Shown here: positions 25,782 through 60,945 of the stretch, piece by piece
How the letters are laid out: every line of letters starts with the position of its first letter
Position numbering within the stretch: position 1 is the first letter of the stretch
Notes under the pieces: model-generated
What the model saw: the letters and a program-made list of their open reading frames with translations, nothing else
Told to the model about the DNA's origin: nothing
Databases searched by the model: none
Made by a program: the position numbers and the translations under genes
Assembly (NCBI GenBank): GCA_963760795.1
Contig: CAVXEP010000003.1
Span: forward strand, 160,001 to 224,000
Reading direction: 5' to 3'
DNA: 64,000 nucleotides
Origin: an uncultured delta proteobacterium
Lineage (GTDB): Bacteria > Desulfobacterota > Binatia > UBA9968

Positions 25782-26229
25782 TCACTCTGCGGCGATCTTG
25801 ACCAGGTCGCCGCGCAATATGGCATGGGCGGCGGCCCCGGCGTGACACTCGAACTCGCTCGGACTCGCCATCTCGACATTGTTACAATAGCTGACGATGT
25901 TGATCACGCCATTGGCGCCCGCCTGCTTGGCGCGTTTTTGAAGTTCGACCAGCGCCGCCAGGAACGCTGGCGTTGCACGCTTTGACATCGTCAGTACGGC
26001 GCGTGCTCGCTTTGCCGTGAGGGGTAGCATTCCCCAAGTTGGTGACGATCGCCAGAGTCGGCTGCTTGCCGAAGAAAAACTTAACAGACCCGTCGGGTTT
26101 TTCACGAGCCTCAGACGATTCCAGAGCCGCTTTGATCAGCAGCAGATATCTATCGTTCCTGGCCTGGGCGGAGCAGACGACGGCGAGTGATACCGCCAGC
26201 CCAATGGTTGAGAAGCGAACCGATTTCAG
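25782..26229 (-). pseudogene. Frameshifted paralog of the adjacent secreted YbjQ-like ('excinuclease'-annotated) protein
   Basis: Reconstructed ...SAQARNDRYLLLIKAALE...KPDGSVKFFFG...ACN/AFLAALVELQKRAKQAGANGVINIVSY...EFECHAG; one frameshift, no ATG start. Confidence 0.65.
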
Positions 26230-26339
26230 CGCCTTGCCCTACGTTTGGTTGAAACCTGACTGCGCGGACCGCTCCGATGACCGCCAACTTCGGTGCTCGA
26301 AAAATCTTTACCTAAGAACTTCCCGACGCCAGCAATGCA

Positions 26340-26786
26340 CTATTCCGCGATCTTGACAAATTCCCCCCTCAAAGCGACGCCGACGACGATGTTACCGGCG
26401 TGGCACTCAAACTCCGTCGGGCTTGACATGACATTCTTCTGATAATAGCTGACGATATTGACGACGGCATTGGCGCCCAATTGTTTGGCGCGCTTATCGA
26501 GTTGAATCATTGCCGACAGAAACACCCAGTTGCACGCCCTTTCATCGGACTTACCGACGCTATTGGTCTTTTGATTGGTCGAATCGGTGCCGAGCTTGGT
26601 GAGAATTTTTGGCGTCTCCTGGTTGCCGAAATAGAACTTCACCGAGCCGTCAAGCTTCTCTTTGGCATCTTTGGCTTCCAGGGCGGGTGCGACCGGAAAC
26701 ATAAGTTTAGTATCGCGCGCGTGCGCCGGCCAAACAGCGCCCAAGGTTAACGCGGCGACAATCGTCAATTGAGAAATTCTTTTCAT
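26340..26786 (-). CDS. Secreted YbjQ-like protein of the family usually found at the end of aryl-polyene operons (often mis-annotated 'excinuclease ATPase subunit')
   Basis: RBS AGGAGG; signal peptide; ACNWVFLSA...GANAVVNIVSYY...ECHAG. Confidence 0.75.
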   Translation of the reverse strand: MKRISQLTIVAALTLGAVWPAHARDTKLMFPVAPALEAKDAKEKLDGSVKFYFGNQETPKILTKLGTDSTNQKTNSVGKSDERACNWVFLSAMIQLDKRAKQLGANAVVNIVSYYQKNVMSSPTEFECHAGNIVVGVALRGEFVKIAE

Positions 26787-26950
26787 CGATCTCCTCCTTC
26801 TGGGGTTTAGGCTTAGAACTATAAACTCTCTACGACCCGAACGGCAACTCCTTTGATTCAACGATCTTCACTAAGTCTGCCTTTCAGCCATACTGTCACG
26901 ATGATCTTAGATTAGCGATTTCATCCTGACAACCTCTGGAAAAATTTTTC

Positions 26951-27949
26951 CTAAGCCATCCGCCGGAAGATCAACGAGGTGTTGATGCCGCCGAAGGCGA
27001 AGTTATTCGACATGACGTACTCGCACTCGAGCACGCGGCCTTGGTTGACGATGTAACCGAGCTCGGCGCAGGCGGGATCCACGCTTGCCAGATTGATCGT
27101 CGGGGCGAACCAACCGCTGCGCATCATTTCGATCGACATCCACGCTTCCAGCGCGCCGCAGGCGCCGAGGGCGTGCCCCATGTAACTCTTGAGCGAGCTC
27201 ACCGGCACCTGGTTGCCGAACAGTTTGCCCGTCGCCAGCGATTCGGCGACATCGCCATGCTGCGTGCCCGTGCCATGAGCATTGACGTAACCGATCGCCG
27301 ACGGCGGTAAATTGGCATCGGCGAGCGCCAGCTCCATCGCCACTTGCATGGTTTTGGCGTTGGGCTGCGTGACATGACAGCCGTCGCTGTTGGTGCCGAA
27401 ACCGACGATCTCGGCATACACCGGCGCGCCGCGCGCTTGCGCATGCTCGAACTCTTCGAGAATCAGCGTACCGGCGCCCTCGCCGAGGACCAAACCATCG
27501 CGATCGATGTCGAAGGGGCGCGGCGTGGTATCGGCGGCATCGTTGCGCACGCTAGTAGCGAACAGCGTATCGAAGACCGCCACCTCGGTGACGCATAACT
27601 CTTCGGCGCCGCCGGCGATCATCGCCCGCTGTTGGCCGGCGCGAATCGTCTCATAGCCATAGCCAATGCCCTGGCTGCCCGAGGTGCAAGCGCTCGAAGT
27701 CGTAATGATCCGCCCAGTGACGCCGAGAAATACCCCGAGGTTGACCGGCGCGGTATGGCCCATCATTTTGATGTAAGTGGTGGCATTGATGCCCTTGGTG
27801 CTTTTCTCGCTAATCATCAAGCCGAAATCGCAAATCGCTTTCGGCGTCCCGGTTGAGGAACCGTAAGCGATTCCGAGCCGTCCACTCTTAACTAAAGGAT
27901 CGTCCAACAGGCCGGCATCGAGAAGAGCGAGCTCGCTGGCGCGCGTCGC
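26951..27949 (-). pseudogene. apeR: 5'-truncated beta-ketoacyl-ACP synthase (ApeR-like)
   Basis: Begins at ATRASELAL; has SSACTSG, NAHGT, KSYMGHALG and NNFAFGG; about the first 80 aa are replaced by transposase sequence. Confidence 0.8.
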
Positions 27950-28720
27950 TGCATCAACTGCTGCCCGCGCTCGCCCCGGATGCGCCGCCGATTGGCATAC
28001 ACCGCGTCGCGCTAAGCGTGCTGATCGGTCCAGTGCTGCCGACCACGATCCGGTTCGCTGATGTAGGTACACAGTCCCAGGCTCTGCATATCGAGCACGG
28101 TTTCCTTGCTGTGATAACCCGTGTCGGTGACCACTTCCCCCACCGTCTTTACCTTTTCGTTGATCGCGGCTACAGCTTCGAGCTGTTCGACCGCTTCGGG
28201 TAGCGTCGTCTGAATCGCGGTCGTGTCGCCTTGATCAGCTTCTTGCAACGTGACGGCCACGGGGTCATGCGGCGGATGCGTCCAGTCCTGGTTGGACCCT
28301 TTGTTCTTGCGCTTGCGATCGAGCTTTGCCAGATCCTCCCGCGTCGGGGTCTCAATGCCAGAGGCCTGGGCCAGCTTGGTCAAAAAGTCGTTTATATGTC
28401 TCTCCGGTGTCGCGGCGCACGATGCTGCGCAGGGCCGCGTTCGCTTCGAGCGTGGTGGAGTCTAGCAATCGTTTTTCCCTTGATCAGCCGGGCGATGCCC
28501 AGACACTGAAGCACCCACGTGAATACCGTCCGATGGGTGTCCAAATCGATCAATCGCCGCGTCCGCGATATCGTGGAGTGATCCCGGCGCAGCCTCTGTC
28601 AGCGCCAGTCCGAGAAACGCGGCAGCTCGTCTGCGAGCATATTGCTGCGACGGTGGCACACTTCAAGGCGAAAATTCCTTTGCCCAACCCCCCGCCCTGC
28701 ACCGATTTAGCCACTCTCAA
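27950..28720 (-). mobile_element. Degenerate DDE transposase remnant (IS1182/IS5-like)
   Basis: Fragments APDHSTISRTRRLID, DSTTLEANAALRSIVRRDTG, PTREDLAKLDRKRKNKGSN, DTGYHS and RDAVYANRRRIRGERG, with stops and deletions. Confidence 0.75.
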
Positions 28721-28901
28721 CTGATTTTTTTAGGTTTATCGGTTTTCGACTTTGACGGGACCGTGAGCACTAGTGATGCCCCATCTCCAAAGTCTCGTCG
28801 CCGCCGCAGCATTCGATTTCAGATCATCTTCTTGCTTTCTCGGTCAGTGAGAGTGCTTACAACACACGCGCAGACTTTGGTGACCCCGGTTAAGCGCATC
28901 C

Positions 28902-29344
28902 GTGCTGGCGCCCAACGCCAAGTTGCGCGGCGAAATCATTCCCAGTCCGCCAGAGCAGGAAACCGAGCCCTCAAAGGATGCCGCGCGCGGCACGCCGGCG
29001 CGCATGAGCTGGGCTCGACTGCTCAAACGGGTATTCGACTTTGACATCGAGCGCTGCGCCAACTGCGGCGGCGATTTGAAGATCATCGCTGCGATCGAAG
29101 ATCTGCCGGTGATCGACAGGATCCTCAGCCATCTGGGCTTGCCAACGCGAGCCGACGGCGCTGCTCGCTCTGAGTTCGAGCGAGCGGCGCGAAAAGGAAC
29201 ATTTCGCGCGCCTGCGACCGGTTCGCCGCCGGAGCCGACCCAGGCAAAAGCGCAAATTTCACTAATCGCTCCGACGATTGACACCCTCGCTTGTTCAGCG
29301 ATATAGATTCGGTCAGAAACAAGGTGGTTTAAAAATACTATTCA
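28902..29344 (+). mobile_element. IS91/ISCR transposase C-terminal remnant with putative oriIS
   Basis: VLAPNAKLR...MSWARLLKRVFDFDIERCANCGGDLKIIAAIED...ILSHLGLP; downstream AAGGTGGTTTAAAAATACTATTC at 29321-29343 resembles ISCR oriIS ends. Confidence 0.75.
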
Positions 29345-29884
29345 TCTACGGTCGAAATTTTCACAACGGAGCATCTACTTTGGTAAGGAATAACTTCAGA
29401 TCCAAGTTTTCGTGTTTAACTCCGGGATCGTTCGCGATAGCTTGTTGGTTATGATGAGCCGTGAAGAGTGGGAGAGCGCGATCTCGACCAACCTTAACGG
29501 ATTTCATAATATTATGCATGTGGTTTTATTTCCAATGCTCCGTGAAAAAAGGGAACACATCGTGGTGGTCTCATCCACTTCCGGACAAATAGGACAGGCC
29601 GGGCAGGTTAATTACTCAGCTTCAAAGGCAGGATTGATTGGCGCGGCGAAAGCCTTGGCGCACGAAGTTGGTAAAAAAACATTCTTGTCAACGTTGTTGC
29701 TCCCGGCCTGATTGAAACGGATATGACTGAAGGGTTTCCCGCAGATCAAATTATGCGCCTGATTCCTCTGAGGCGCCTTGGCAGAGTGGAAGATGTTTCT
29801 TCGGTGATTCATTTTCTGTGCACAGACAAGTTCACGTATATCCATGGACAGGTGATTGGCATTAACGGAGGTTTGGCAACGTGA
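29345..29884 (+). pseudogene. 5'-truncated, frameshifted 3-oxoacyl-ACP reductase (FabG-like)
   Basis: FNSGIVRD, GQVNYSASKAG, then PGLIETDM...GQVIGINGG in the next frame; the Rossmann N-terminus is missing. Confidence 0.8.
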
Positions 29885-31419
29885 GTCAATCCTCTGTGAA
29901 GCACTACGATAATATCGTCGTTGGAAGCGGAGCGAGCGGCTTATCGTTAGCCCAGCTGCTCGCATTGAGTGGCAAGAAAGTGCTGCTCATTGAAAAAGGG
30001 TGGTATTTGGGCGGGAGCCTGACGCGTTTTAAAAAGAAGGGGATTCCCTTTGATACCGGTTTTCATTTTACTGGTGGTTTTACCGATGGCGGGGTTCTCG
30101 ACGAAATGCTTAGAGCGCTGGGTATTCGTAATAGCATTGAACCGATTTTTTTGGATGATCCCGGATCGAATCGCTACGTCTTTGAAGGGGACGGCAAAGC
30201 TTATGACTTTCCCCGAGGCGTTGAGGCTTTTAAGGCCAGCTTGAAAGGTTATTTCCCCAATGAGACACAAGGCATTGACCGTTATTTCGAGATGAGTGAG
30301 AGGTGTTACCGGGAAACGCCCTCGCTTGATCTTCGAAGAATCACGGACACACCCAATGTGCTTGAAGAGGATTATAAAACACTCGCTAGTGTGCTTGATG
30401 AATTGTTTCAAAGTAAACACATTAAAGGTGTGCTTTCCACTTATTGTATGTGTTACGGAGTAAAACCGTCAGAGGTTTCCTTTGCGAATCATGCGCGTGT
30501 GGCATACGCACTTTATGAAGCAGTGGCGCGTGTGAAAGGCGGCGGCGACGCTTTTGTAAACGCGTTTGAGAAGGCGTTTGAATCATTGGAGGTCGACATC
30601 CGGCTGCGAACTTATATCACCTCCTGTGAAGATATTCAAAACCGTGCGGTGGGGCGATTTGTTTTGAATACCGGCGAGCAAGTCTCTTGTGATCAGTGTA
30701 TCTTTACGATTCATCCCTATTCCATTCTTGAAACGCTTCCGCGGGAACATTTGAATAAAGCGTTTATAGAGCGCGTTCGGAACTTTGAGCCGTCGCTAGG
30801 TTTTTTTTCTTTATACTGCGAACTCAAAACGGATAACCCCGATGAACCGATTAGCCCAACCATCACCACCCTGCTTCCCGTGTCTGATGTTAATACTTTG
30901 ATGGATCCTGAAAACGCGGGCCCAACGGCGGTTGTTGTGTTGACTAGTAATGAAGAAGTGAAGGGAAAGCTTCGGAAAGTTATGACAGTGCTAGAGCCGT
31001 CGTTTTTGCGAGATGTGGAGGATTGGAAAGATACTTCCCTGAAAAGACGACCTAAATCTTATTCGCTGTATAAACAGGATCGTGTGGATAAGATTTTGAA
31101 ACGCATAACTGATTCTTGTCCGGAATTTAGAGGGCGTATCGAAGTGGTTGAAGTGGCTTCGATGCTTAGTTATCGGTTCTTTTTGCATTCGCCGGACGGA
31201 TCGGCATACGGTGTAAAACAGAAAATTGGTCAAATTAATTTATTTGGAAGGCTCCCTTTTCGGAATTGCTATGCTTGTGGGCAAAGTGCCATCCTTCCTG
31301 GTATTGTCGGTGCGATGATGTCTTCTTTTATTGTTTCGAGGGCCATTTTAGGCCGCGACGAATACGATAAATTCATGCAGGAGAGACTCCCCCGTGAAAC
31401 GTGTGGTTATTACCGGTAG
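29881..31419 (+). CDS. Phytoene desaturase / retinol-saturase family FAD oxidoreductase
   Basis: VVGSGASG, FDTGFHF, GSAYG and CGQS..PGIVGAMMS. Confidence 0.8.
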   Translation: MSQSSVKHYDNIVVGSGASGLSLAQLLALSGKKVLLIEKGWYLGGSLTRFKKKGIPFDTGFHFTGGFTDGGVLDEMLRALGIRNSIEPIFLDDPGSNRYVFEGDGKAYDFPRGVEAFKASLKGYFPNETQGIDRYFEMSERCYRETPSLDLRRITDTPNVLEEDYKTLASVLDELFQSKHIKGVLSTYCMCYGVKPSEVSFANHARVAYALYEAVARVKGGGDAFVNAFEKAFESLEVDIRLRTYITSCEDIQNRAVGRFVLNTGEQVSCDQCIFTIHPYSILETLPREHLNKAFIERVRNFEPSLGFFSLYCELKTDNPDEPISPTITTLLPVSDVNTLMDPENAGPTAVVVLTSNEEVKGKLRKVMTVLEPSFLRDVEDWKDTSLKRRPKSYSLYKQDRVDKILKRITDSCPEFRGRIEVVEVASMLSYRFFLHSPDGSAYGVKQKIGQINLFGRLPFRNCYACGQSAILPGIVGAMMSSFIVSRAILGRDEYDKFMQERLPRETCGYYR

Positions 31420-32626
31420 AGGCGTCGTTAGTCCTTTCGGCAGCAACCTGACTTCTCTGATGGATGGTTTGGAGAAGTCAAAAAGTGGGGTGCTACGAAT
31501 GCCTGGTTGGGAGGAATATAAAGGGCTCAATAGTCTTGTTGGCGCACCGGCGGAATTGAAAGGTGAGAATGCGTTCCCGCGAAAAATTCGCCGATCCATG
31601 GGGCGCTTGAGTGTTTTTGCTGCCTTGGCGGCAAAACAGGCAGCTGAAGAATCGAAGATCGAGGAAGGCCTTTTGAAATCGCGGCGTTTGGGCTGCATTA
31701 TGGGGTCCACCATGGGGAGTGCGGAGGCGCTGAATGAAGCTTTCGAAATTATGCTGCCGAACCACGATTTGTCTCAACTGTCTTCCATGGGTTTTTTTAA
31801 ATGCGTGTCACATACGGCGGCCATGAATGTCGCCCAGGCCCTGGGTGTTAGAGGGTATGTGATGGCTCCCTCTGCCGCTTGTGCCTCGTCATTACAGGCG
31901 CTTGGGTTAGGCTATGAGCTGATTCGAAGCGGAAGGCAGGATGTTTTGCTTTGTGGCGGCGCCGAGGAGCTTCATCCAATTGTGACCGGTATTTTTGAGA
32001 TTCTTTTTGCAACGTCGACTCATTTTAACGATAACGCCTGGTTGACCCCGCGGCCTTTTGATGCGAGACGAGACGGACTTGTCTGCGGCGAAGGTGCCGG
32101 TGTGCTCGTGCTGGAAGATTATGAACACGCCCGTCAGCGCGGCGCGGATATTTACGGCGAGATTGCAGGCTATTCAACTTGTGCAAGCGGAACTCATGTC
32201 AGTGAATCGAGCCGTGAAGGAATGAGGGATTGCATGGACAATGCCATCCAGGACTCGGGCCTCAAGCCGGAGCAAGTGGATTACATCAGCGCACACGCGA
32301 CGGCGACTATTCAGGGCGATCAGGCTGAAGCCGAGGCCATTCGTGATATTTTCGGTGATCGTGTCCCGGTAAGCGGAATGAAAGGGTATATCGGGCACAC
32401 ACTGGGTGCTTCCGGGGCGATTGAATTAGCAGCCTGTTTGGAGATGATGTCCCGGGGAATAATTTACCCGACTTTAAATTTAGAAGACGTCGATGCCAGT
32501 TGCAGTGGAATTGCACACGTGCAAACGCCGTTAGAAAAAGAGATTAAAGTTGTAGTAAAAAATTCGTTCGCCTTTGGCGGTATCAATACGGTGTTGGTTT
32601 GCAAAAAGCTTGACGCTTATCAGTGA
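31394..32626 (+). CDS. Beta-ketoacyl-ACP synthase (FabF/ApeR-like)
   Basis: KRVVITG, AACASS, SAHAT, KGYIGHTLG and NSFAFGG; Cys-His-His triad intact. Confidence 0.9.
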   Translation: MKRVVITGRGVVSPFGSNLTSLMDGLEKSKSGVLRMPGWEEYKGLNSLVGAPAELKGENAFPRKIRRSMGRLSVFAALAAKQAAEESKIEEGLLKSRRLGCIMGSTMGSAEALNEAFEIMLPNHDLSQLSSMGFFKCVSHTAAMNVAQALGVRGYVMAPSAACASSLQALGLGYELIRSGRQDVLLCGGAEELHPIVTGIFEILFATSTHFNDNAWLTPRPFDARRDGLVCGEGAGVLVLEDYEHARQRGADIYGEIAGYSTCASGTHVSESSREGMRDCMDNAIQDSGLKPEQVDYISAHATATIQGDQAEAEAIRDIFGDRVPVSGMKGYIGHTLGASGAIELAACLEMMSRGIIYPTLNLEDVDASCSGIAHVQTPLEKEIKVVVKNSFAFGGINTVLVCKKLDAYQ

Positions 32627-32643
32627 GAGGAGATCCGGGACGA

Positions 32644-32910
32644 ATGGACGAAGTTGAAATTAAAAAACTTGTGGATGAAGTTTTCGTCGAGGCTTTTGAA
32701 ATTGAGCCGGCGCGACTAAGATCGGAAATGAGAATATTTGAGGACCTGGGTATCGACAGTCTTGACATTGTTGATTTGGTGGTAGCTTTGCAGAAGAAAT
32801 TTAAGATTCAGATTCGCGACGATGAGCGCGTTCGAAAGATTCGGACTCTAGGGGATATTTATGATTTCATCCTCACACTGAAAAGCGAAACGCATATTTC
32901 TGAGGCTTGA
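32644..32910 (+). CDS. Acyl carrier protein (ApeF-like)
   Basis: DLGIDSLDIVDL phosphopantetheine site. Confidence 0.88.
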   Translation: MDEVEIKKLVDEVFVEAFEIEPARLRSEMRIFEDLGIDSLDIVDLVVALQKKFKIQIRDDERVRKIRTLGDIYDFILTLKSETHISEA

Positions 32911-33668
32911 GCCGTGAAGGAATCCTTCCTTTGAAAAAGATACTCCTAAATCTGATCTTTTATCCGTCATTTGTGTTGGTCACCGTGCTGATGCCTGCGA
33001 TCACTCTTTTTCCGATGGTTCTATTTCGGCTCACCTTAGGAACCCGCAAAACACTTTATATTTTAAGGGCGTTGATTCGCTGCTATGGCTCCATCGTAGT
33101 TCGAATTCTGCCTTTTCCTTTCGTGCGAGTAGAGTATCAGGACTTCGAAAGAGACAAAAATCGCGGCGCATGTGTCTTTGTTTGTAATCACCGGTCGAGT
33201 TCCGATGCGTTTTTGATGGGATGTTTGCACCGGGAAGTGGTTCAGGTGGTGAACAACTGGCCTTTTAAGATCCCGGTGATCGGAATGATCGGACGTCTGG
33301 CAGGATATCTAAGTGTGCGCACAATGCCATTCGAGGAGTTTCGACGGACTAGCTGCAAGCTCTTGCGAGAAGGGGTTTCGGTGGTGGCTTTTCCAGAAGG
33401 TTCAAGATCAAGGGACAAAACCTTGCATCAATTCAACGGTGCTGTGTTTCGGGTGGCTCAATCGGCGAGGGTTCCGATCATTCCAATTTGTCTCAGTGGC
33501 AATCAGGATATCCCGCCTAAAGGCTCTGGCGTTTTAAATCCGGGAACTATTAAGATGCATAAATTGCCTGCGCTTGAATGGGAATCGTTTAAAGATCTAA
33601 CGCCCTTTGTGGTCAAGAACAAAGTGCGTGCTGTCATACAAGAAGAACTTGAACGGTTGGAGGCATGA
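32907..33668 (+). CDS. Lysophospholipid (PlsC-like) acyltransferase
   Basis: NHRSSSD (NHxxxxD) and FPEGSRS. Confidence 0.85.
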   Translation: MSREGILPLKKILLNLIFYPSFVLVTVLMPAITLFPMVLFRLTLGTRKTLYILRALIRCYGSIVVRILPFPFVRVEYQDFERDKNRGACVFVCNHRSSSDAFLMGCLHREVVQVVNNWPFKIPVIGMIGRLAGYLSVRTMPFEEFRRTSCKLLREGVSVVAFPEGSRSRDKTLHQFNGAVFRVAQSARVPIIPICLSGNQDIPPKGSGVLNPGTIKMHKLPALEWESFKDLTPFVVKNKVRAVIQEELERLEA

Positions 33669-33698
33669 CGTATCGATCAAAGAAGAAATGAAAGCCCT

Positions 33699-34181
33699 TT
33701 GTTGGAGCCGGTGAAGGACGGGCGTGGTCAAGTGGGGGATTTGCCGGTTAAAGCGAGTGTTTATATTCCTCACTGCAGGGAAATGTGTGTCATAGATGAT
33801 TTAGTCGAGGTGTGTGATAGATCGGCGCAGGCGGAAGTTGCGGTCCGAGGAGACAGTCCATTCGTACGCTTGGACGGGAGTGTGGAGGAATGTCTTTTCG
33901 TTGAAATGATTGCACAGACGATTGCGGCAGCGTCGGGATTTGAGCTGCCCACAGCGGAACGTAAGACGCTTGAAGGATATTTGCTGGGGGTTCGCGCTTT
34001 GAAGATCTCGTGCGCCGCCCGTGTCGGTGATGTTTTACGTATTAAAGCGTATAAGTCGGCAGAGTTTGGCGATTTCAGCGTGATTGAAGGCAGCGTGAGC
34101 CGAGGATCTCAGGTGCTAGCGCAGGGAGAAATCAAAGTGTTTCAAAGAAGTATAAAGGACACTGGCACAAGACATGCCTAA
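33699..34181 (+). CDS. Hotdog-fold dehydratase (ApeP-like); start uncertain
   Basis: IPHCREMCVID, EMIAQTIAA and GYLLGVR. Confidence 0.75.
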   Translation: MLEPVKDGRGQVGDLPVKASVYIPHCREMCVIDDLVEVCDRSAQAEVAVRGDSPFVRLDGSVEECLFVEMIAQTIAAASGFELPTAERKTLEGYLLGVRALKISCAARVGDVLRIKAYKSAEFGDFSVIEGSVSRGSQVLAQGEIKVFQRSIKDTGTRHA

Positions 34182-34217
34182 GCATACGAAGACACCGGTC
34201 TATGAAGAAATATTTAG

Positions 34218-34595: not shown

Positions 34596-34599
34596 CAAA

Positions 34600-36733: not shown

Positions 36734-36759
36734 CTAACAGCCTGGTGAAAAAGGATTCT

Positions 36760-36837: not shown

Positions 36838-36859
36838 AGTAAGAGGTGAGTCATTCAGG

Positions 36860-37375: not shown

Positions 37376-37388
37376 AAGGGAGTGTCCG

Positions 37389-49615: not shown

Positions 49616-49662
49616 GAAACTCCACCCACAACGCAACCCCCGCAACAAAGCAATTCGGATGA

Positions 49663-52720: not shown

Positions 52721-53145
52721 GGCGGCGACACTCCCAATTTCTCGAACAGCACCGGCGGTGAGACAAAACACATCTCGCCACTCGTCCCGTCGACGGCGAC
52801 TTGCGTAGTAGTAGCGCGCGAGAGCCGGCGCCCCGTCATCGCGTCGTTGATCAAATACTGAATCTTGAGACGATTTTGCCACTCGACAATTTCAGCGCGC
52901 AATTTCAGCCGCTGCCCAAAGGTTGCCGGGCTAGCGTAACGAATATGCATATCGATCACCGGCCAAGCATAGCCGGATGCTTTCATCTGCTGGTAGTTGT
53001 AGCCGATCCGATCGAGCAACGCGCAACGTGCGATTTCTAAATACTTGACATAGTGGCCGTGCCATACGACCTCCATGGGATCGAGATCGAAAAATTGCAC
53101 CTGGGTCTCTATTTCAGCAACCCAACGGCTGGGAGTTTTACTCAT
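52717..53145 (-). CDS. apeK: Acyl-CoA/ACP thioesterase (ApeK-like)
   Basis: FFDLDPMEVVWHGHYVKYLE and WPVID. Confidence 0.85.
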   Translation of the reverse strand: MSKTPSRWVAEIETQVQFFDLDPMEVVWHGHYVKYLEIARCALLDRIGYNYQQMKASGYAWPVIDMHIRYASPATFGQRLKLRAEIVEWQNRLKIQYLINDAMTGRRLSRATTTQVAVDGTSGEMCFVSPPVLFEKLGVSPP

Positions 53146-53179
53146 AAGTGTTTCAGGCTTTGTCTGGATGGAGAAAAGA

Positions 53180-53470
53180 AATTTCACCACGAAGTGTTTC
53201 ATGAGCTTGCGCTCGTCTACAGATCATGAAAATACCGGAAGCCCCCTCCCGAGGGTTCATTCCTTAGACTCGTCATGCCGGCGCAGGCCGGCATCCAGGG
53301 GCGGGAGGGGGGATGGATACCGGCCTGCGCCGGTATGACGGACAGAGAGTCGTTATCGACGCGCAGATCATCGCTGCACGTGAATTTTCGAAGGAGGCAC
53401 GAAGGACACGAACGTTTCAGATGACCAAAGCTCCGAACTTCGTGGTCTTCGTGTCCTTCGTGGTGAAAAT
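53180..53470. repeat. Composite intergenic repeat: CACGAA-type elements surrounding a CGTC-type REP palindrome
   Basis: 27-bp arms 53271-53297 CGTCATGCCGGCGCAGGCCGGCATCCA and 53314-53340 TGGATACCGGCCTGCGCCGGTATGACG; flanked by ttcaccacgaag and cttcgtggtcttcgtgtccttcgtggtgaaa. Confidence 0.8.
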
Positions 53471-53495
53471 ATCTTCGCATTAAACCAGGAATAAC

Positions 53496-55053
53496 CTACT
53501 GATAAATCTTCCATGCCCGGCTGCGCATCCGGTCGAGCAGCAGCCTTAGGTCGGGTTCCAAACGGCGATCCTCCTCAATCACAGCGATGTCGCCACTGAG
53601 CGCATCGATCATGGTTTGGAGCGCCGGGCTTGGCGCCAAAGCTGGATTCAAACGACAGCGCAACCAAGCGGCCTGGCGCACCGTGATCAACAATCCAGCG
53701 GCCACCTGTTCGGTCAATTCCAACACCCGCGTGCAGTCGCGCGCCGCGATGGTGCCCATGCTGACCTTGTCTTGGTTGTGGCATTCGGTGGAGCGGGAAA
53801 ACACCGACGGCCGGCATAGTCAGCTTAAGCGCTTCCGCGGTCCACGCCGAGACGCTGATCTGCAGCGCCTTGAGACCATGATTGATCGCCGCGCGCGGGC
53901 CAGTGACGCCGGAGAGATTGGCCGGCAAGCCGTTGCTGTAGCGGCTGTCGACTAACAAGGCCATTTGCCGGTCGAGTAAATCGGCTAGGTTGGCCACGGC
54001 GTTTTTCATGCTGTCCATGGCGAAGGCGATATGGCCGCCGTAAAAATGGCCGCCATGCAGCACCCGTTCGCTCGCGGCGTCGATGATCGGATTGTCATTG
54101 GCGCTGTTCAGTTCATTTTCGATGTACGAGCGCAGCCACGGCAGCGCATCGGCGAGCACGCCGATGACATGGGGCGCGCAGCGAATCGAATAGCGGTCCT
54201 GCAGCCGTTTGCCGTCGTCGGCGGATAGTTGAACCGGTAAATCTTGGCGCAGCCAGCCAGCCACCGATTGTTGGCCGGGATGGGGTTTGACCGAAAATAA
54301 CGTCGCGTCAAAATGCTCGGCGTTACCGTCGAGAGCGAAGGACGCCAGCGCGCTGATGCGGGTTGTCAGCCGGGTGAGGTATTCGGCACGCACATAGTTC
54401 AAGCAGGCCAGACCGGTCATCACCGCCGTGCCGTTCATGATCGCCAGCGCTTCCTTCGGCCGCAGACGCAGCGGCGTAATGCCAGCCTCGGATAATACCG
54501 CAGCCGCAGGGACAGTCGCGCCGCCGCGCAACACTTCGCCTTCGCCGCACATGACCGCGGCGAGATAGGACAGTGGCGTCAGATCGCCGCTGGCGCCCAC
54601 CGAACCTTCGCAAGGAATCGCCGGCACGACATCATGCCTGAGCAAATTGACTAGCTGCTCCAACAAGCCGACGCTGACGCCGGAAAACCCCTTGCACAGC
54701 GAGGTCAAACGGGTGGTGATCGCCGCGCGGGTTTCGCTTGGCGTGAAGTGGGCGCCGAGACCGCAACCGTGAAAGATGTAGAGATGGCGCGGCAGCTCCG
54801 CGATCAGCGCCGGCTCTATCGCGACGGTGCAGGAATCGCCGAAGCCGGTGGTGACACCGTAAATCACGCCATCTGCGGCGAGCCGGCGGTCGAGAAAGTC
54901 TGCGCCGCGGGCAATCGCGGCGCGAAACTCCGGCGCCGTAGATAAACTCGCCGCCGCCGCTTTTTCAGCGATGGCGACGATCTCTTCGATATCGCGCCAA
55001 CCGGAGTCGAAGCACACCATGGGCGAGGAAGTTATAACTTTAGCGGGCTGCAT
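53496..55053 (-). CDS. Aromatic amino acid ammonia-lyase (HAL/PAL/TAL family; frameshift near 53805)
   Basis: IYGVTTGFG, MIO-forming GASGDL, QDRYSIRC, GGHFYG and ECHNQDKVSMG. Confidence 0.88.
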
Positions 55054-56023
55054 GATCGTCGTTCAGAGGACCTACTTGCCAAAAGTCATAAAAGTTAAAC
55101 CATTGCAACGGCTCTTGCCGGCAGTAAGCCGCGAGCCGAGCCGCGTAGGCGGCAGCCAGGGCATCGAGCGCAGCCGGGCGATCTTTGCGCGGCAAGCGGA
55201 TCGACTGGCGGAATAGCTCGATGTGAATTTCCCAACCGCGGCGGCTGCGCAGTGAAAACAGCAGATAGACCGGACACTGAAACAAGCTCGCAAGCACATA
55301 GGGCCCGATGGGAAACGGCGCCGGCGCGCCGAGAAAAAGCGCCAGAGCGACCCTGCCGTTGAGCGACACCGGAATACGGTCGCCGGCGATGGCGATAAAT
55401 TCGCCCCGCGCAACTTTTGCCGCTAGCACCATGGCCGTGGCCGGTGTGATCTCGGTAACCTGGAGCAGATTGATTTCGCTTTGTGGATCAAGCCGCGCCA
55501 ACAAACGATTGAATTTTTCGGCGTGTAAAGTATGCGTCAACACGGTCAGCTTTAGCCCTGGCTGGCGTCTCGACATCACCCGGCATAACTCTAGATTACC
55601 GAAATGGGCGCAGATGAAAATGCCGCCGCGCCGCGCGGCAATTTGACCGGCTATCACATCGCCACCGTCGAGCCTGACCTGCTCCTCGTCGAACCAACCT
55701 CCCCACAAGAGCATTTTATCAAGGAGAGTCTCCCCGAAGGCCGCGAAATGGCGCGCAACATCGATCAGGTTCGGTGCGCTTGCGCGCTGGCCACGCCAGG
55801 CAGCGAGTCGGCTCAGATAGCCGCGCGACGATTGCCGCGCTGCGCGCTGGGTCGTCAGATACCAGAACACCACCGGGCAAAGCAGCGCACGGAACGGCCA
55901 GCGACCCAAACAACGATAAAGCCAGAGCAGCAGGCGCATGCCCGCAACAAAGCTGAACTCATCGAGCTCCGCCCAGTGCGGCGCGCGAGCTTGGGATAAG
56001 GGCCGCGTCAACGCAGGCTCCAT
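55040..56023 (-). CDS. LpxL-like acyltransferase (ApeJ C-terminal-like)
   Basis: AHFGNLE, AIAGDR, FPIGP and QWFNFYDFW. Confidence 0.85.
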   Translation of the reverse strand: MEPALTRPLSQARAPHWAELDEFSFVAGMRLLLWLYRCLGRWPFRALLCPVVFWYLTTQRAARQSSRGYLSRLAAWRGQRASAPNLIDVARHFAAFGETLLDKMLLWGGWFDEEQVRLDGGDVIAGQIAARRGGIFICAHFGNLELCRVMSRRQPGLKLTVLTHTLHAEKFNRLLARLDPQSEINLLQVTEITPATAMVLAAKVARGEFIAIAGDRIPVSLNGRVALALFLGAPAPFPIGPYVLASLFQCPVYLLFSLRSRRGWEIHIELFRQSIRLPRKDRPAALDALAAAYAARLAAYCRQEPLQWFNFYDFWQVGPLNDDHAAR

Positions 56024-56751
56024 TTGCGCATAATCAACATCGGCAGTCGCAGCAACATGCCGCAGAACAACCTGGCGTGCAAGTGCGCAATAAGTATGTT
56101 GTCCCACAATCCGCGAAAATGCGAACGCCCGTCTTTGGGATAACTCACGGTGGTGGGTAGGTTGACAATCTCCACCCCGTCCCAGTAGAGCCGCACCAAT
56201 ACTTCTATATCAAAATCCATACGCTGGCCGAGTTTTTGCCGCTGATCTAAGGCGATAAGTGGCGGCAACGGATAGACGCGAAAACCGCACATGGAATCCT
56301 TGATTTGCAACGACAGAGTATGGACCCACACCCAGACATGGGTCAGATAGCGCGCGCAAAGCCGCAACCATGGCACCGTTGCATCATACTTTGAATAGCC
56401 AACGATAAGCGCCTCGGGATGAAGACGTGCCCGCTCGACAAAGCGGGGAATATCGGCGGACCGGTGTTGACCATCCGCATCGATCTGGAGCACATGGCTG
56501 TAGCCCAGTTGCGCAGCATGCCGCGCGCCCAACAACACGGCCCCTCCCTTTCCACGATTGACCGCGTGGCGTAACACGGTAAGTCGGCCCGGTCGCGCCG
56601 CGGCCATCACATCAAGAAGGCGCGCGCACTCCGCGGAGCTGGCGTCGTCCACCAGTATGCACGGCAAGTTCTGCGCAACCACGGCATCCACAACCGCGCC
56701 GACTGCGCGTTCGTGGTTGTACACGGGAATCACGGCGCAGGGTTTAAACAT
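56008..56751 (-). CDS. Glycosyltransferase family 2 (ApeJ N-terminal-like)
   Basis: VIPVYNH, VDDAS, NRGKG, QIDADGQH and DSMCGFRVYP. Confidence 0.88.
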   Translation of the reverse strand: MFKPCAVIPVYNHERAVGAVVDAVVAQNLPCILVDDASSAECARLLDVMAAARPGRLTVLRHAVNRGKGGAVLLGARHAAQLGYSHVLQIDADGQHRSADIPRFVERARLHPEALIVGYSKYDATVPWLRLCARYLTHVWVWVHTLSLQIKDSMCGFRVYPLPPLIALDQRQKLGQRMDFDIEVLVRLYWDGVEIVNLPTTVSYPKDGRSHFRGLWDNILIAHLHARLFCGMLLRLPMLIMRKWSLR

Positions 56752-58471
56752 CCGCCGCTCCAAATATGACACGACCGCTGGCATGCGATCCAAGAGGTGA
56801 GCTGATTTTAAAGAACAAGGAGGATTGGGCAGGCTCATGCACCAGTTCGAGGGTAAAGGGCATCTCCGGAGGAATGATCCGCTGGAACTTGAGCGCGTGG
56901 ATGGCGCGGAAAAGAGGCGGTAAATCGAAGCACTGACGCCCGAAATAAATGACCCACTCGACCTGGACCACGCCCGCTAGAATCGGCCCGGCTGAAAAAT
57001 GGCCGTCAAAATATAGTAAATCGCGCGGCGCGGTTAACTCGAATACGGCATGGCGCGCATCCTTCGCGATCAAGCGCTGAAGTGGCAGCGTCGGGCGGGA
57101 AGGCACGTGCCCCACCAATGCGGCCAACTCGGCATAGGTCGTTTTGCCCTGGGAATTGACCGGCAAAGCGTCAAGATAACGCCAAACTCGCGGCAAACCA
57201 ACGGGCTCGACGGACTCCGTGAGGAGAATGCGCAGCATGCGATTGAAAACGAGTTTGCCGACCTCAACCAATTTGCGACGCCCATCAACCGACAGCACGA
57301 CGAATGCCGCAATCCGCTGGCGGCGCCCCTCTATGACATGCACCCGAGCATCGCTCACTAACGGCGATGCCATGAGCCGAGCTTCGATGGCGCTCAGTGA
57401 AATCCGCTTTCCCTCGACTTTGGCGATCTTATCGATTCGCCCCTTGAGCAGAAAACGATTTTCGCCCAGTTCCAACACCTGGTCGGCCGTGCGAAACCAT
57501 TCTTCATTGGCTAAATGCGGCGAGCGGATTTCCAGTACGTCGGCTTGCGGATCGACACGCCACGTAACGCCGGGCAAAGGGGTCCACACCGCATCCGCGC
57601 TCGCACGTTGTTGGCGCCAGGCGATGCCACCGGTTTCAGAGCTGCCATAGACCTCGATCGGTATCCGATCAAGCAAACGATCAGTCTGATGAGCAACCTC
57701 GAGCGGCAACGGCCCACCAGACGAGAACACCGCTCTTAACCGATTCGATGTTTTCGCCCACGCCGGAGTTTCCGGCAAGCGTTTCAGATGCGCCGGACTC
57801 GATATCAACACCCAATCGCGTTCGGGAAGCGCTGCGGTCAGTTCTTCAAAAAACGAAAAGCTCCGCGCATAAATGGCGCGCGCGGCGGTCAGCGGCCACA
57901 AAACCTGAAAGAGTAAACCATAGATATGTTGATGAGAAACCGTTGCAAAAATGTCGGCAGCGCCAAGCAATTTTCCAAACTGACTTTCAAGCGTTGCCAC
58001 CTCTCGGGACAACTGGAAGAGTTTTTTCGGTATGGCTTGGGCCACGCCGGTGCTGCCAGAAGTATAAAGCACGACTCCGGCAAATTCAGGATCCAGGCGA
58101 TTCCAATCATCCTCGTGGACTGCCAAATCCTGCGCCATCGGCACTATTGGCTGCCATACGGATTCGAACTCGCCCAAGTAGCCATCGACATTTTGGCGCA
58201 AATCGGCGCAGGTGCCGGGCAGCCGATCGCCCGGCAGGTAAATCGTTTTGCCAGCCTGCCAAGCCCCGAACAGCGCGGCGGCAAACTCGATGCCATCATC
58301 GATGTAGAGCGCAAATCGCCGGCCGGACTCAGCGCGCAAAAGCGCGCGCCACGCGCGTGTCCGCGCGAGGAATTTTTCCCAGCTCACGGACTTGTCGCCG
58401 CGCCACCCGACGGTCGAACCGGCCGGCCGCGGCGCCGCAAGTAGATCGAGCATGTCCGCGGATTCAAGCAT
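56744..58471 (-). CDS. Acyl-ACP synthetase (ApeH-like) fused to a C-terminal ApeI-like dehydratase
   Basis: YTSGSTG, HQHIYG, YGSSETGG and NSQGK; C-terminal FDGHFSAGPILAGVVQ...LKFQ. Confidence 0.85.
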   Translation of the reverse strand: MLESADMLDLLAAPRPAGSTVGWRGDKSVSWEKFLARTRAWRALLRAESGRRFALYIDDGIEFAAALFGAWQAGKTIYLPGDRLPGTCADLRQNVDGYLGEFESVWQPIVPMAQDLAVHEDDWNRLDPEFAGVVLYTSGSTGVAQAIPKKLFQLSREVATLESQFGKLLGAADIFATVSHQHIYGLLFQVLWPLTAARAIYARSFSFFEELTAALPERDWVLISSPAHLKRLPETPAWAKTSNRLRAVFSSGGPLPLEVAHQTDRLLDRIPIEVYGSSETGGIAWRQQRASADAVWTPLPGVTWRVDPQADVLEIRSPHLANEEWFRTADQVLELGENRFLLKGRIDKIAKVEGKRISLSAIEARLMASPLVSDARVHVIEGRRQRIAAFVVLSVDGRRKLVEVGKLVFNRMLRILLTESVEPVGLPRVWRYLDALPVNSQGKTTYAELAALVGHVPSRPTLPLQRLIAKDARHAVFELTAPRDLLYFDGHFSAGPILAGVVQVEWVIYFGRQCFDLPPLFRAIHALKFQRIIPPEMPFTLELVHEPAQSSLFFKISSPLGSHASGRVIFGAADV

Positions 58472-59006
58472 TGAACCGCCTCTTGAATCGGCAACGCATA
58501 AAATACTCGCCGGCAAATAGCAAGCCCATGAGCAGATAAGCAACCACGCCGTTGTAAAGCGACCAGACGGCGGGCGGGGCCCAGAGCGCTGTCGACAGCG
58601 CGACGGCGCCGTTAACTGCGAAAAACACGCACCAGACCTGCGTAACGCGTTTCATGTAGCCCACCGATTGGGCGGGCAGGTCCGGCTCCCGCATGCGCGC
58701 GAAACGCTCGGCCATCGAAGGAGGAAAAATAAGACTGTAACCGAATGCGCCCAACATTGCCGCATTCACTAGCACCGGATAAAGCTTTAACGGAAGCAGC
58801 GCGTTGCTCCACACGGCAAGTGTCAAAAGCACCAGCACTCCACCCAACCACCAATATCCAGCCTTGTTAGATTTCAGGACGTGCAGCCGCGTCAATGCGA
58901 GAAGCAACAAGAGCGCGGCAAGAAAGCGCGGTTTGAACTGCCCTTGGCCAAACCAGATCGCCAGCGGGTAAAGCAACGTGAGGATAATCATCAATACAGT
59001 TGACAC
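58464..59006 (-). CDS. apeG: COG4648 membrane protein (ApeG-like)
   Basis: LYPVLVN, YMKRVTQVW, WSLYNG and LFAGE. Confidence 0.82.
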   Translation of the reverse strand: MSTVLMIILTLLYPLAIWFGQGQFKPRFLAALLLLLALTRLHVLKSNKAGYWWLGGVLVLLTLAVWSNALLPLKLYPVLVNAAMLGAFGYSLIFPPSMAERFARMREPDLPAQSVGYMKRVTQVWCVFFAVNGAVALSTALWAPPAVWSLYNGVVAYLLMGLLFAGEYFMRCRFKRRFNA

Positions 59007-59017
59007 GATTCCCCTTG

Positions 59018-59281
59018 CTACGGCACGAGCAGCGCGGCCAGCGCTGTCACGACATCCTGGATGGTGCGCACGCTCTTGAACACTTCCGGCTGCAGCCTCT
59101 TGTCCGTCATATCTTTGAGCTTGACGGCGAGGTCCACCCCATCGATGCTGTCGATATCGGGGTCGGTATAAAGATTTGCCGCCGGCGTGATCTTGGCCTT
59201 ATCCAGCTCGAGCATTTCGTGCAACGTATCAACCACCAATAAATAAATCTCTTCCTTGCTCATTGAACTTGGCAGAGCCAT
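59018..59281 (-). CDS. apeF: Acyl carrier protein (ApeF-like)
   Basis: DIDSIDGVDL and FKSVRTIQDVV. Confidence 0.82.
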   Translation of the reverse strand: MALPSSMSKEEIYLLVVDTLHEMLELDKAKITPAANLYTDPDIDSIDGVDLAVKLKDMTDKRLQPEVFKSVRTIQDVVTALAALLVP

Positions 59282-59294
59282 GGATATTACCCCC

Positions 59295-59555
59295 TCACTC
59301 CTTCCGATTGCGATCAATCAGAGCGCCGAGAGTACGAACCGATGCAAAATGGCGGCGGGTCTCCTCCGAGTCTGACGAAAGGGTGATCCCGTAACGCTTG
59401 TAGATGGCCACGCCCAGTTCAAGCGCGTCGATGGAGTCCAAACCCAATCCCTCAACAAACAGCGGCGCTTCGCTGTCGATATCCGCGGGCGTCAAGTCTT
59501 CAAGCTGCAAGACATCGATGATCATCTGTTTAATCTCGTCTTCAAGCGATTGCAT
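59295..59555 (-). CDS. apeE: Acyl carrier protein (ApeE-like)
   Basis: LFVEGLGLDSIDALELG. Confidence 0.88.
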   Translation of the reverse strand: MQSLEDEIKQMIIDVLQLEDLTPADIDSEAPLFVEGLGLDSIDALELGVAIYKRYGITLSSDSEETRRHFASVRTLGALIDRNRKE

Positions 59556-60206
59556 GAAAGTGACTTTCCTTTGTAAAGAAATCGCGCAGGTAGTCGGTCA
59601 GATGCCGTGCCGCCAAATTCTCAATAGACGCTTGGCTGATAAATTGTTGAATGTCGATATCGCTTTGTACCTCAATGCTGAATTGCGGCCGGCTCGCCGG
59701 CAGCGTGACGTTGCAGCGGGCGCGCATCGCGACATGGGCGGCGCCCCGTTGGAGCTTAAAGCTCCCGTCCGAAGCTGTGCGCGTCCCCTCAGGGAAAATG
59801 ATCAGGTTCTCGCCCCGTTCAAGCGCCGCCACGCAATCCGTCAAAAGCTGTTCGCCCTCATCGTTGCGAATATAGTTGGCAGCCACCACCGGGGCATGAA
59901 AAACGGATTGCGCCACGATATCGAGAAACGTCGGATGATTGGCGACGATGAGCAAGCCGCGCCGGTTGAGTTTCTCGGCGCCGATAACTTTATAGTCCAA
60001 GAGCCGCGAAAAACGCAAAAAGCCAATCAAAGAAGCAAAACTCCAGGCGATGAAATCCCGGGCCAGATTCGTGCGCACGCGGAAATCCCGAACCAAAACA
60101 TTAAGCATCGGAAAAACAATCAGTTGGATCAACCCGCCGATACCAAACGCAACAAAGCCCAGAGCGACAAAAAAACCTGCGACCAACGGGCGGCTTCTTT
60201 AAACAT
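59542..60206 (-). pseudogene. apeD: PlsC-like acyltransferase (ApeD-like) with apparent internal deletions
   Basis: ANHPTFLD and IFPEGTRT present; segments after HPTFLDI and after RCNVT look missing; frameshift in a T7 run near 60170. Confidence 0.6.
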
Positions 60207-60945
60207 CGCTCGACCAAACCCAGCGCCGACCGTCACAGCGGCGCTCCAAACTGTGCTCGCGGCGGAGATAGAAGCGCCAGATCTCAAGACCGCCGGGCAA
60301 CGCGGCAGTGTCCGATGGCGCAGAACTCTCGATTGGCGACCAAGCAAGGGTCATGCGCCGCGCGCCATTCGGTTCCATCAACCAGGCCCAAGCGAACGGC
60401 TGCTCGTGGCAGTCTTCAAAGGCACGGTACACAGGCGGCAGCGGACAGTCATAGACCACCAACAGGACCGCGGGTTCGCCGTCGGCCAATAGAGTGCCGG
60501 CCTCGATCACACCATGTTCGACGCTGCTTTGGCCAGCAGCGAGAGCGACGTGGTGCGCACGGTCCGCCCGCGCTATGGAAAAAAGCCCGCCCACCGCGTT
60601 GTGCACCGACATACCAAACGCAGTCGGCGAAAGCGGCTGACCCTTGGCCAACTCGGACAACATCGAAACCGAACGGTCCACTTCGCCGTGACGCGAGCAA
60701 AAGACGATCGGCACATCGCGGCGGTCGCCAAGACATCGGTAGGCGACTTCGAGCGCCATCCGGTCAAGAAATCCGGCGCGCCGGCGCAGCATCGGCGCCA
60801 TTGCGCGCACCGCCGGCTCGGTCTCACCCGTGATCTCCCGACGACCCAATGACCAGTCGAGCCAATCCTCCGGCGTTTCTACCCCCGGTGCCCAGGCAGC
60901 GGAGGCGGTGATGGAAAATTTAATCCCACTGTCTGGCACGACCAC
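60199..60945 (-). CDS. apeC: Ketosynthase chain-length factor (ApeC-like)
   Basis: PMLRRR, SRHGE, LSPTAFGMSVHNA and LLVVYD.PLP. Confidence 0.85.
   Translation of the reverse strand: MVVPDSGIKFSITASAAWAPGVETPEDWLDWSLGRREITGETEPAVRAMAPMLRRRAGFLDRMALEVAYRCLGDRRDVPIVFCSRHGEVDRSVSMLSELAKGQPLSPTAFGMSVHNAVGGLFSIARADRAHHVALAAGQSSVEHGVIEAGTLLADGEPAVLLVVYDCPLPPVYRAFEDCHEQPFAWAWLMEPNGARRMTLAWSPIESSAPSDTAALPGGLEIWRFYLRREHSLERRCDGRRWVWSSDV

Follow-up and report, generated by a model that had tools for sequence, protein, structure and literature searches.

A probable scar of gene transfer at the 3' end of an aryl-polyene operon in an uncultured member of the Binatia

Aryl-polyene (APE) clusters are the most widespread family of biosynthetic gene clusters in Gram-negative bacteria, according to the accessible text of bioRxiv 10.1101/2020.12.19.423268. 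What does it mean when two clusters of this family lie at one locus, the second inside a gene of the first? Contig CAVXEP010000003.1 of an uncultured member of the Binatia (assembly GCA_963760795.1) raises this question. In the 64,000-nucleotide (nt) stretch analyzed here (the window), an APE operon on the minus strand (the outer operon) is disrupted in its terminal ketosynthase (KS) gene, apeR, next to a second gene cluster on the plus strand (the island). An original prediction had found that the two look like complementary halves and took them either for one hybrid pathway or for two clusters decaying together. Our analysis points to a plainer answer, which we consider probable: one ordinary APE operon was struck at its 3' end by horizontally acquired DNA associated with insertion sequences (IS), and the locus is the scar of that gene transfer. 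The history behind it appears to be more complex than one insertion. Gene identities were taken from a list of open reading frames (ORFs) together with Pfam and NCBIfam scans, and the gene order of the outer operon was cross-checked against the RefSeq-annotated Escherichia coli ape cluster and a cluster of Cupriavidus campinensis.

Is the outer operon an ordinary one? It spans 45478..60945 on the minus strand, and family matches as well as the order in E. coli and Cupriavidus bear out the canonical ape order that had been read from the sequence. Its genes encode a chain length factor (CLF, 60199-60945), an LPLAT-type acyltransferase (59542-60186), two acyl carrier proteins (ACPs, 59295-59555 and 59018-59317), a COG4648 membrane protein (58464-59006, with 51% identity to the protein of this annotation in E. 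coli), a fusion of ligase and ApeI dehydratase (56744-58543), a family 2 glycosyltransferase (GT2, 56008-56838), an LpxL-like acyltransferase (55040-56107), an aromatic ammonia-lyase (53575-55053, with its C-terminus in the ORF 53496-53804), a 4HBT thioesterase (52717-53202), LolA (52118-52882), MMPL (49725-52121), a halogenase-like flavoenzyme (48493-49590), DUF3261 (47841-48404), an ApeO-type KS (46657-47844), an ApeP dehydratase (46200-46654) and a FabG2-type ketoreductase (KR; ApeQ, 45478-46203). The ApeO-type KS scored 473.9 bits on PRK09185 (cut-off 407), the pair of KS and CLF is further marked by a Ketoacyl-synt_2 match at E 4e-68 and by the Cys-His-His residues, and ApeQ scored 392.8 bits on FabG2 (cut-off 338.85). 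The operon thus holds the set that marks the APE family, namely an ApeO-type KS with an ApeC-type CLF, tandem ACPs, a FabG2-type KR, ApeI and ApeP dehydratases, an adenylating enzyme, and LPLAT, GT2, LolA, MMPL, DUF3261 and COG4648 in canonical order; what it lacks is an intact FabB-like homodimeric KS, ApeR. Two small minus-strand ORFs without family match lie between lyase and thioesterase (53217-53480, 87 aa) and upstream of the CLF (61006-61389, 127 aa, lipoprotein-like), the latter ruled out as ApeA since it gave no alignment to that protein.

The comparison with known clusters shows likeness in order and differences in content. From CLF to ApeQ the operon follows the annotated E. coli cluster (the apeA-apeR type of E. 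coli and Xenorhabdus), with which it has in common COG4648, two ACPs, ApeI, GT2, thioesterase, LolA, MMPL, DUF3261, KS, a hotdog protein and FabG2. In contrast to E. coli, it has neither ApeA nor ApeB, its apeR is destroyed, ligase and ApeI are fused, and the LpxL-like acyltransferase, ammonia-lyase and halogenase-like flavoenzyme are additional. The chromid of C. campinensis MJ1 (NZ_CP043441.1) carries the same order from CLF to an ApeR-type KS and a small lipoprotein, at 29-74% protein identity, and likewise includes an LpxL-like gene, a flavoenzyme and a fusion of ligase and dehydratase; it differs in that ammonia-lyase and island are both absent and that the ApeR-type KS is intact, within 6 nt after the KR. 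Because the gene order matches both clusters, the outer operon belongs to a known architecture. From family knowledge, its product would be a tyrosine-derived aryl-polyene lipid, possibly halogenated, with the starter supplied and loaded by ammonia-lyase and ligase, extension by ApeO-CLF together with ApeQ and ApeI/ApeP, anchoring by the acyltransferases and GT2, and export by LolA, MMPL and DUF3261. The original prediction had read the KR, thioesterase, LpxL-like and exporter genes of this operon as intact. These genes are indeed there, but single frameshifts lie in ApeP (~46502), the ammonia-lyase (~53807) and the N-terminus of the flavoenzyme (~49555-49575).

Where exactly does the operon break? 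The original prediction placed the break right after the apeR start at 45481. The ATG at this position does overlap the KR stop, but the operon goes on into a stub of apeR (45327..45481, minus strand). Using an orthologue of 409 aa (P0122) as tblastn query and translations, we mapped codons 1-17 to 45481-45431 and codons 104 to ~137 to 45425 to ~45327, the two segments lying in different frames. Codons 18-103 are missing from this 5' copy, which is cut off beside the stop of the island's methyltransferase gene at 45327. A block of 17.4 kb (27947-45336) parts the stub from a 5'-truncated ApeR-type KS gene on the same strand (26954..27946, the 27-kb copy), which matches residues 79-409 of P0122 at 94.6% identity in an open frame, scores 580.7 bits on NCBIfam PRK09116 over profile positions 76-407 of 408 and keeps the catalytic Cys and the first His. 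Beyond it, on the minus strand, translations show two tandem small lipoprotein genes (25782..26861), a 73% direct repeat of which the second (25782-26340) is frameshifted at ~25967; in Cupriavidus a 53% identical homologue directly follows the ApeR-type KS. Homologues of this small lipoprotein were found in 117 plasmid or chromid records (Ralstonia, Cupriavidus, Acinetobacter, Pseudoalteromonas), mostly unannotated there and in the few annotated cases labelled 'excinuclease', and a counterpart lies at 22468-22926 of locus L003.

As had been stated, the outer operon is left without an intact ApeR, having the stub and the separate 79-409 copy. The view of one cluster nested inside a single apeR gene holds only in part: the KS copy and the lipoprotein genes do lie 17.4 kb past the KR on the expected strand, but the two pieces overlap. 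Both contain codons 104-133 (an overlap of ~33 codons), and they are 80% identical over 98 nt. Over the 30 shared codons we counted 19 differences in 90 nt, of which 9.8 were synonymous (20 sites) and 9.2 nonsynonymous (70 sites), so that changes are mostly synonymous in relation to the sites available, with a synonymous divergence (dS) of ~0.8 and a ratio of nonsynonymous to synonymous divergence (dN/dS) of 0.18. A decayed recent duplicate would not show such divergence, and the two pieces therefore stem from different, once-functional alleles and are not halves of one gene, which in turn argues for more than one clean insertion event. The GC content at third codon positions (GC3) of the stub segment is 0.67 and thus host-like. 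Over 34 positions, the mean identity to 119 orthologues was 30.5/34 for the 27-kb copy and 26.7/34 for the stub. The closest relatives of the 27-kb copy carry the name Candidatus Binatia bacterium. Chimerism inside the 27-kb copy was ruled out: from residue 80 on, no 25-residue window stands out in its identity to 102 orthologues.

What, then, is the DNA that separates the two pieces? The island itself measures 15.9 kb (29407-45327, plus strand, GC 0.48). In keeping with the original observation of a low-GC insert on the opposite strand, the stretch between operon and 27-kb copy has a GC content of 0.46-0.53 compared with 0.55-0.63 elsewhere, and GC3 is 0.49 in both blocks of the island, whereas the outer operon has 0.67, the KS copy together with the lipoprotein gene 0.72, and the housekeeping genes 0.75. 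The island is compositionally foreign. An IS701-family element splits it into a left block (29407..35266) and a right block (36737..45327), both read on the plus strand. The left block begins with a KR pseudogene (29412-29880) that starts at position 84 of the short-chain dehydrogenase/reductase profile and is frameshifted at ~29678, and continues with a CrtI-like flavoenzyme (29881-31419), an ApeR-like KS (31394-32626; PRK09116 426.5 bits, below cut-off, Cys-His-His kept), an ACP (32623-32910), an LPLAT acyltransferase (32907-33668), an ApeP-like dehydratase (33699-34181), an ApeI-like dehydratase (34218-34595) and a thioesterase pseudogene spread over three frames (~34640-35086). The right block holds an LpxL-like remnant interrupted by frame changes and a stop (~36901-37337), an ApeE-type ACP (37389-37682; PRK09184 68.5 bits, cut-off 70), an ApeO-like KS (37679-38866; PRK09185 300.8 bits, below cut-off), a CLF (38863-39927), a third ACP (39990-40247), a putative HxxxD (condensation-like) acyltransferase of 445 aa (40217-41554, named from its motif), an FAD oxidoreductase (PF12831 flavoenzyme, 41551-42783), an AMP ligase (42698-44221) and an ApeB/FlxJ-type O-methyltransferase (44239-45327). 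The latter shares 47% identity (E 3e-122) with the methyltransferase that occupies the ApeB position in E. coli, and its ORF is complete right up to the junction.

Much of the predicted content was confirmed, including the intact ApeR-like KS, the ApeB-like methyltransferase, the truncated and frameshifted KR and the five carrier proteins of the two clusters, all of which carry the serine motif. Active-site motifs are present in both island KSs and all three island ACPs. The claim that the thioesterase and LpxL-like genes are broken fared less well: remnants were seen, but they score E 2.9e-4 and 0.005, below the Pfam cut-offs, and the LpxL-like assignment is tentative. When the thioesterase, LpxL-like and LolA proteins of the outer operon were aligned to the island remnants by tblastn, only a 17-residue match was obtained, the paralogues being too distant for lesion mapping. 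The island has the set of an APE-family cluster (ApeR-like KS, ApeO-like KS with CLF, ApeE-type ACP, ApeP/ApeI-like dehydratases, ApeB-type methyltransferase) and is without a working KR, thioesterase or export system of its own, with the KR truncated and frameshifted, the thioesterase in three frames and MMPL absent. The damage comprises the KR truncated by the end of an ISCR element, the thioesterase pseudogene, a deleted LolA gene and the LpxL-like remnant beside the IS701 insertion. The island thus carries a second APE-family cluster, a divergent one, and is the trimmed and partly decayed piece of a larger mobile region. A Bacteroidota donor, considered in view of the FlxJ-like methyltransferase, was rejected because named relatives of the 445-aa protein come from other groups at ~35% identity and methyltransferase matches occur in several phyla.

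IS debris, which the original prediction did not mention (28.0-29.4 kb and the IS701 element at 35267-36736), marks the left junction and the middle of the island. Adjoining the truncated KS copy is an IS5-like transposase fragment (28021..28650, minus strand), found by tblastn to transposases in 11 plasmid records (best E 4e-14), with its C-terminal part missing and its frames broken; NCBIfam matches to IS5/IS1182 are weak (E 0.008-0.01), and the extent past 28428 comes from translations alone. Next to it lies a C-terminal fragment of an ISCR/IS91-family transposase with its downstream end (28884..29406, plus strand; NCBIfam ISCR clade Ia, E 3.9e-14, profile positions 398-489 of 509), which adjoins the truncated island KR. 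The IS701-family element (35267..36736, minus strand; NCBIfam IS701 223.6 and 137.1 bits) has 21-nt terminal inverted repeats, a transposase in two frames, a host-like GC content of 0.61 and no target duplication at its ends. Remnants of three IS families thus lie within 9 kb. A search for repeats flanking the island returned only the 98-nt apeR segment, and a composite transposon or site-specific integration was accordingly dropped. Of the features by which a genomic island or integrative element is recognized (integrase, tRNA target, flanking direct repeats), the set was not found here, and the island contains no integrase.

How did the island come to its present state? Relatives were sought by a contig search of genomes with the 445-aa island protein, and one of 28 pattern matches was confirmed. 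This single related locus, L001 (contig CAWFJP010000004.1), belongs to another metagenome-assembled genome. It is 96.8% identical to the window over 29410-34182, 95.6% over 34202-34750 and 99.6% over 36558-42629, where the L001 contig ends. The two copies hence diverge by ~3.2% in one block (L001 707-6352) and ~0.2% in the other (6352-12413), with the switch at the IS701 remnant. Such unequal divergence implies that island variants have recombined, and the island is a mosaic whose two blocks differ in history. L001 lacks window positions 34751-36557, but it carries the IS701 end at 36558-36736, so the IS701 insertion predates the split of the two copies. Homology between them begins at 29407-29410, next to the ISCR/IS91 fragment, and the left flank of L001 differs from that of the window. 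There L001 continues into the 5' part of the KR gene (adh_short 3-47, E 2.9e-7) and, further upstream, a weak excisionase-like helix-turn-helix match (E 0.002-0.005). The left end of the island in the window is therefore probably a secondary truncation.

The sister copy also shows which genes were lost and which were kept. The L001 KR has its own stop and a 5-nt deletion and does not share the 1-nt deletion of the window. Further, L001 retains a LolA fragment of 107 aa (E 2.2e-8) where the window has a 307-nt deletion, and the functions missing from the island were therefore lost by decay. This speaks against the notion that the island was without an exporter by design. The lesions in KR, thioesterase and LolA are thus real and arose independently in the two copies. 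When window and L001 were compared, we counted 6 indels over the 1441 nt of pseudogene and IS sequence but none over the 9920 nt of intact genes (~4e-6 under random placement). The original prediction had named relaxed selection in the intact genes as an outcome against it; for six intact left-block genes compared between window and L001, dN/dS was 0.13-0.45 (pooled ~0.26), which indicates purifying selection, while the right block has too few differences for a judgement. Constraint has thus acted on the remaining island genes during at least some of the time in which the copies diverged. One further difference concerns the acyltransferase and the ApeP-like dehydratase (window 32907-34181), which form one ORF of 424 aa in L001 (4200-5474) and are separated in the window by a single in-frame TGA (33666-33668). 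We dropped the reading of this TGA as a nonsense lesion in a fused gene: L001 reads through, and both fused and stand-alone (~250 aa) relatives exist.

One of the retained genes encodes the uncharacterized 445-aa protein. Among 6787 candidates, 307 homologues were found at E <= 0.001, and an alignment of 24 sequences shows the DHxxxDAxG motif (D150, H151, D155, A156, G158) without variation. The family, of ~440 aa, is covered by neither a Pfam nor an NCBIfam model. Matches among the 24 members are scattered over Condensation (4/24), WS_DGAT_C (2/24) and PapA_C (1/24), with none for the window protein itself; a few homologues are annotated or scored as condensation-like, and PDB profile matches cover the motif alone at E 0.02 or weaker. 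Members are mostly metagenomic, the named ones coming from metagenome-assembled genomes of Desulfobacteraceae, Deltaproteobacteria and Thermodesulfovibrionales, and a tblastn search with the protein against plasmids gave no match. Clustering at 90% identity places the window protein in a group of 20 sequences, and several of these come from contigs of 100-590 kb. Distant homologues of this protein and of the methyltransferase show equal longest-contig sizes in 8 cases, which suggests that the 445-aa family and ApeB/FlxJ-type methyltransferases share contigs in a conserved type of cluster. Judged by its motif, the protein may be an HxxxD acyltransferase and could off-load the chain.

Does the outer operon need any of these genes? 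In the accessible text on the E. coli system, the main APE lipid is still produced when apeR is deleted, and the authors consider every gene to be apparently required, with apeR as the possible exception (PMC8253772). For Acinetobacter, the available part of PMC8358021 reports that ApeO-ApeC suffice for the full polyene in vitro and that ApeR raises throughput. The Cupriavidus cluster has no ApeB-type methyltransferase in the 26 kb examined. On these grounds, apeR may be largely dispensable, which suggests by analogy that the outer operon needs no rescue by the island. The island does have the ApeR and ApeB that the outer operon lacks, but in view of these reports and of the decay seen in both island copies, the apparent complementarity is not compelling.

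A working hybrid could nevertheless exist without any such need. Here, the island's intact genes for ligase, ACPs, KS/CLF, dehydratases, HxxxD acyltransferase, flavoenzymes and methyltransferase would be expressed, borrow the ketoreductase, thioesterase, anchoring enzymes and exporter of the outer operon and yield a methylated or otherwise modified polyene lipid. Several of the above results are compatible with this: both island KSs and the three ACPs have intact active-site motifs, the HxxxD motif is invariant in its family, the compared genes show purifying dN/dS values and none of the indels, the methyltransferase ORF is complete as far as the junction, and the 445-aa protein recurs in 20 sequences at >= 90% identity on large contigs. 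Further, the KR step is the only step of chain extension without an intact island gene, and ApeQ, ~50% identical to the island KR, is encoded next door. However, the selection signal may predate the decay or come from a donor lineage, the more so as the blocks differ by 3.2% and 0.2%, and the L001 KR and thioesterase have different lesions of their own with only a LolA fragment left, a pattern of module loss. The outer operon needs no rescue, and the two clusters are convergent and hence not co-transcribed. We therefore regard a functioning hybrid as unlikely.

Could the junctions be artificial? In a chimeric contig, the assembly would pass from one population to a related second one within the IS debris (28.0-29.4 kb), and in no single genome would the truncated apeR and its lipoprotein genes be neighbors of the island-bearing operon. 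Such a contig would place the join in fragments of two IS families, would explain why the two apeR pieces are different alleles, and would fit the different left flank of L001. It would also fit the composition of the KS copy (GC3 0.77 compared with 0.66-0.69 in neighboring outer genes) and its relatives: the copy is 91.5-95.2% identical to the synthases of one protein cluster, while the 241-aa reductases listed there match outer ApeQ at only 87.5-88.4% identity, which hints that the outer operon and the KS copy differ in recent history. The reductases compared are, however, not shown to share genomes with the KS orthologues. In addition, the displaced piece is just what should follow apeQ, and in the right orientation, and the housekeeping genes to the left and right share their GC3 (0.754 and 0.743). 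Even in a chimeric contig the island would adjoin the apeR stub at 45.33 kb. Taken together, an assembly chimera seems improbable to us.

That both clusters are dying in a genome that loses genes at large is very doubtful: real frameshifts in ApeP, ammonia-lyase and flavoenzyme, others in argH and xerC as well as in one ABC transporter gene and in the second of the lipoprotein genes, none in a long homopolymer, and the three IS families in 9 kb would agree with it, but a similar frameshift density in core and accessory genes is also expected of technical indel error, each affected gene has one lesion in otherwise conserved sequence, and the intact island genes show no indels against L001.

We thus return to gene transfer into one ordinary operon and ask how the present topology could have arisen. 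In the preferred scenario, the resident operon would have been replaced by a diverged ape operon with the island already in it, with the left join formed illegitimately inside the resident apeR. Alternatively, a circular element carrying an apeR fragment could have integrated by a single crossover, giving the same topology. Single-crossover, Campbell-type integration leaves a duplicated target fragment on both sides of the insert. The locus resembles this in that the 5' copy ends at ~codon 137, the 3' copy begins at codon 79 and the shared segment is direct on both sides. It differs in that the repeats are only 80% identical without a long identical run, the 5' copy lacks codons 18-103, and neither a circular form nor a recombinase was seen in the window. 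Either way, the arrangement would be tolerated because the pathway seems to depend on apeR less than on any other of its genes.

Several points weigh against this account of a transfer scar. The order of events behind the two apeR alleles is read from topology and divergence alone, and no genome with an empty site was seen. It is in IS debris, where mis-joins typically occur, that the left junction lies. The sister comparison covers one locus and ends at the equivalent of window position 42629, short of the right junction and the apeR context. The dispensability of apeR was shown in the E. coli and Acinetobacter systems, not in this operon type. Purifying selection and the 20-member cluster at 90% identity fit retention for function and not pure junk. 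Finally, the three frameshifts of the outer operon could mean that this operon is also dying. Single frameshifts in otherwise conserved sequence, however, occur as well in the ABC transporter gene (~4105-4153), argH (~14142-14196) and xerC (~21594-21681). Their similar density in core and accessory genes points either to technical indels or to genome-wide decay, and the frameshifts were accordingly not taken as a sign that the outer operon is dead.

If the junctions are real, the locus shows how two clusters of one family can be united through IS elements and a ketosynthase gene that is conserved. It also offers a natural case in which apeR, the one gene reported dispensable, has taken a large insertion, and two independently decaying island copies that reveal which genes are lost and which are kept. 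This does not overturn current understanding; the locus is best seen as a scar, here annotated, that gene transfer left in a metagenome-assembled genome. One may speculate, at what we judge to be long odds, that APE clusters spread by homing on each other's conserved apeR, with the island carrying a foreign apeR piece as homology anchor. Settled in the one dispensable gene of the host operon, its surviving genes, namely those for ligase, KS/CLF, HxxxD acyltransferase, two flavoenzymes and ApeB-type methyltransferase, would then be maintained by selection and draw on the host's KR, anchoring and export functions, and two clusters of one family would combine naturally to make a modified polyene lipid of the outer membrane.

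The methyltransferase and the lyase also invite comparison with the flexirubin cluster flxA-flxY of Chitinophaga pinensis, which, as far as the accessible text of PMC3992019 goes, is likewise a system for polyene assembly in the manner of type II fatty acid synthases, comprising several KSs together with a CoA ligase, a methyltransferase, LolA and an exporter. All scores on its protein models stayed below cut-off: 511 bits for the island methyltransferase on FlxJ (560), 102 for the island KR fragment on FlxB (340) and 276 for the outer lyase on FlxA (700). In contrast to flexirubin clusters, no DarA/DarB resorcinol genes were found among the ORFs scanned, the sole DarB match being a weak one of the 27-kb KS copy (20.4 bits). 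The only lyase lies in the outer operon and none within the island, which appears to add the putative HxxxD acyltransferase and two flavoenzymes. A literature search gave no match for Binatota together with aryl polyene, and the accessible text of a paper on Binatota pigments (PMC8262859) makes no mention of polyene, flexirubin, arylpolyene or xanthomonadin.

The left end of the window (401-3689) carries a gene for DUF3106 and the gene pair DUF1800/DUF1501. Two genes of ABC transporters come next, and after them proS-like, dapB, dapA, dapF, lysA, argH, argG, argF, argD, argB, hslU, hslV and xerC. No tRNA gene was found by a scan of the window, and Rfam models gave no match at gathering scores. 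A scan of 27.8-46.3 kb for promoters and terminators was uninformative (19 found compared with 15.6 +/- 3.7 expected and 18 compared with 24.2 +/- 5.1 expected, respectively). The plus strand shows a strongly positive AT skew (0.14-0.31) at positions 1-1000, 23001-25000, 48001-52000 and 55001-61000 of the window, all of them minus-coding stretches, whereas the skew is far weaker over the arg, lys and dap genes, though these are likewise encoded on the minus strand.

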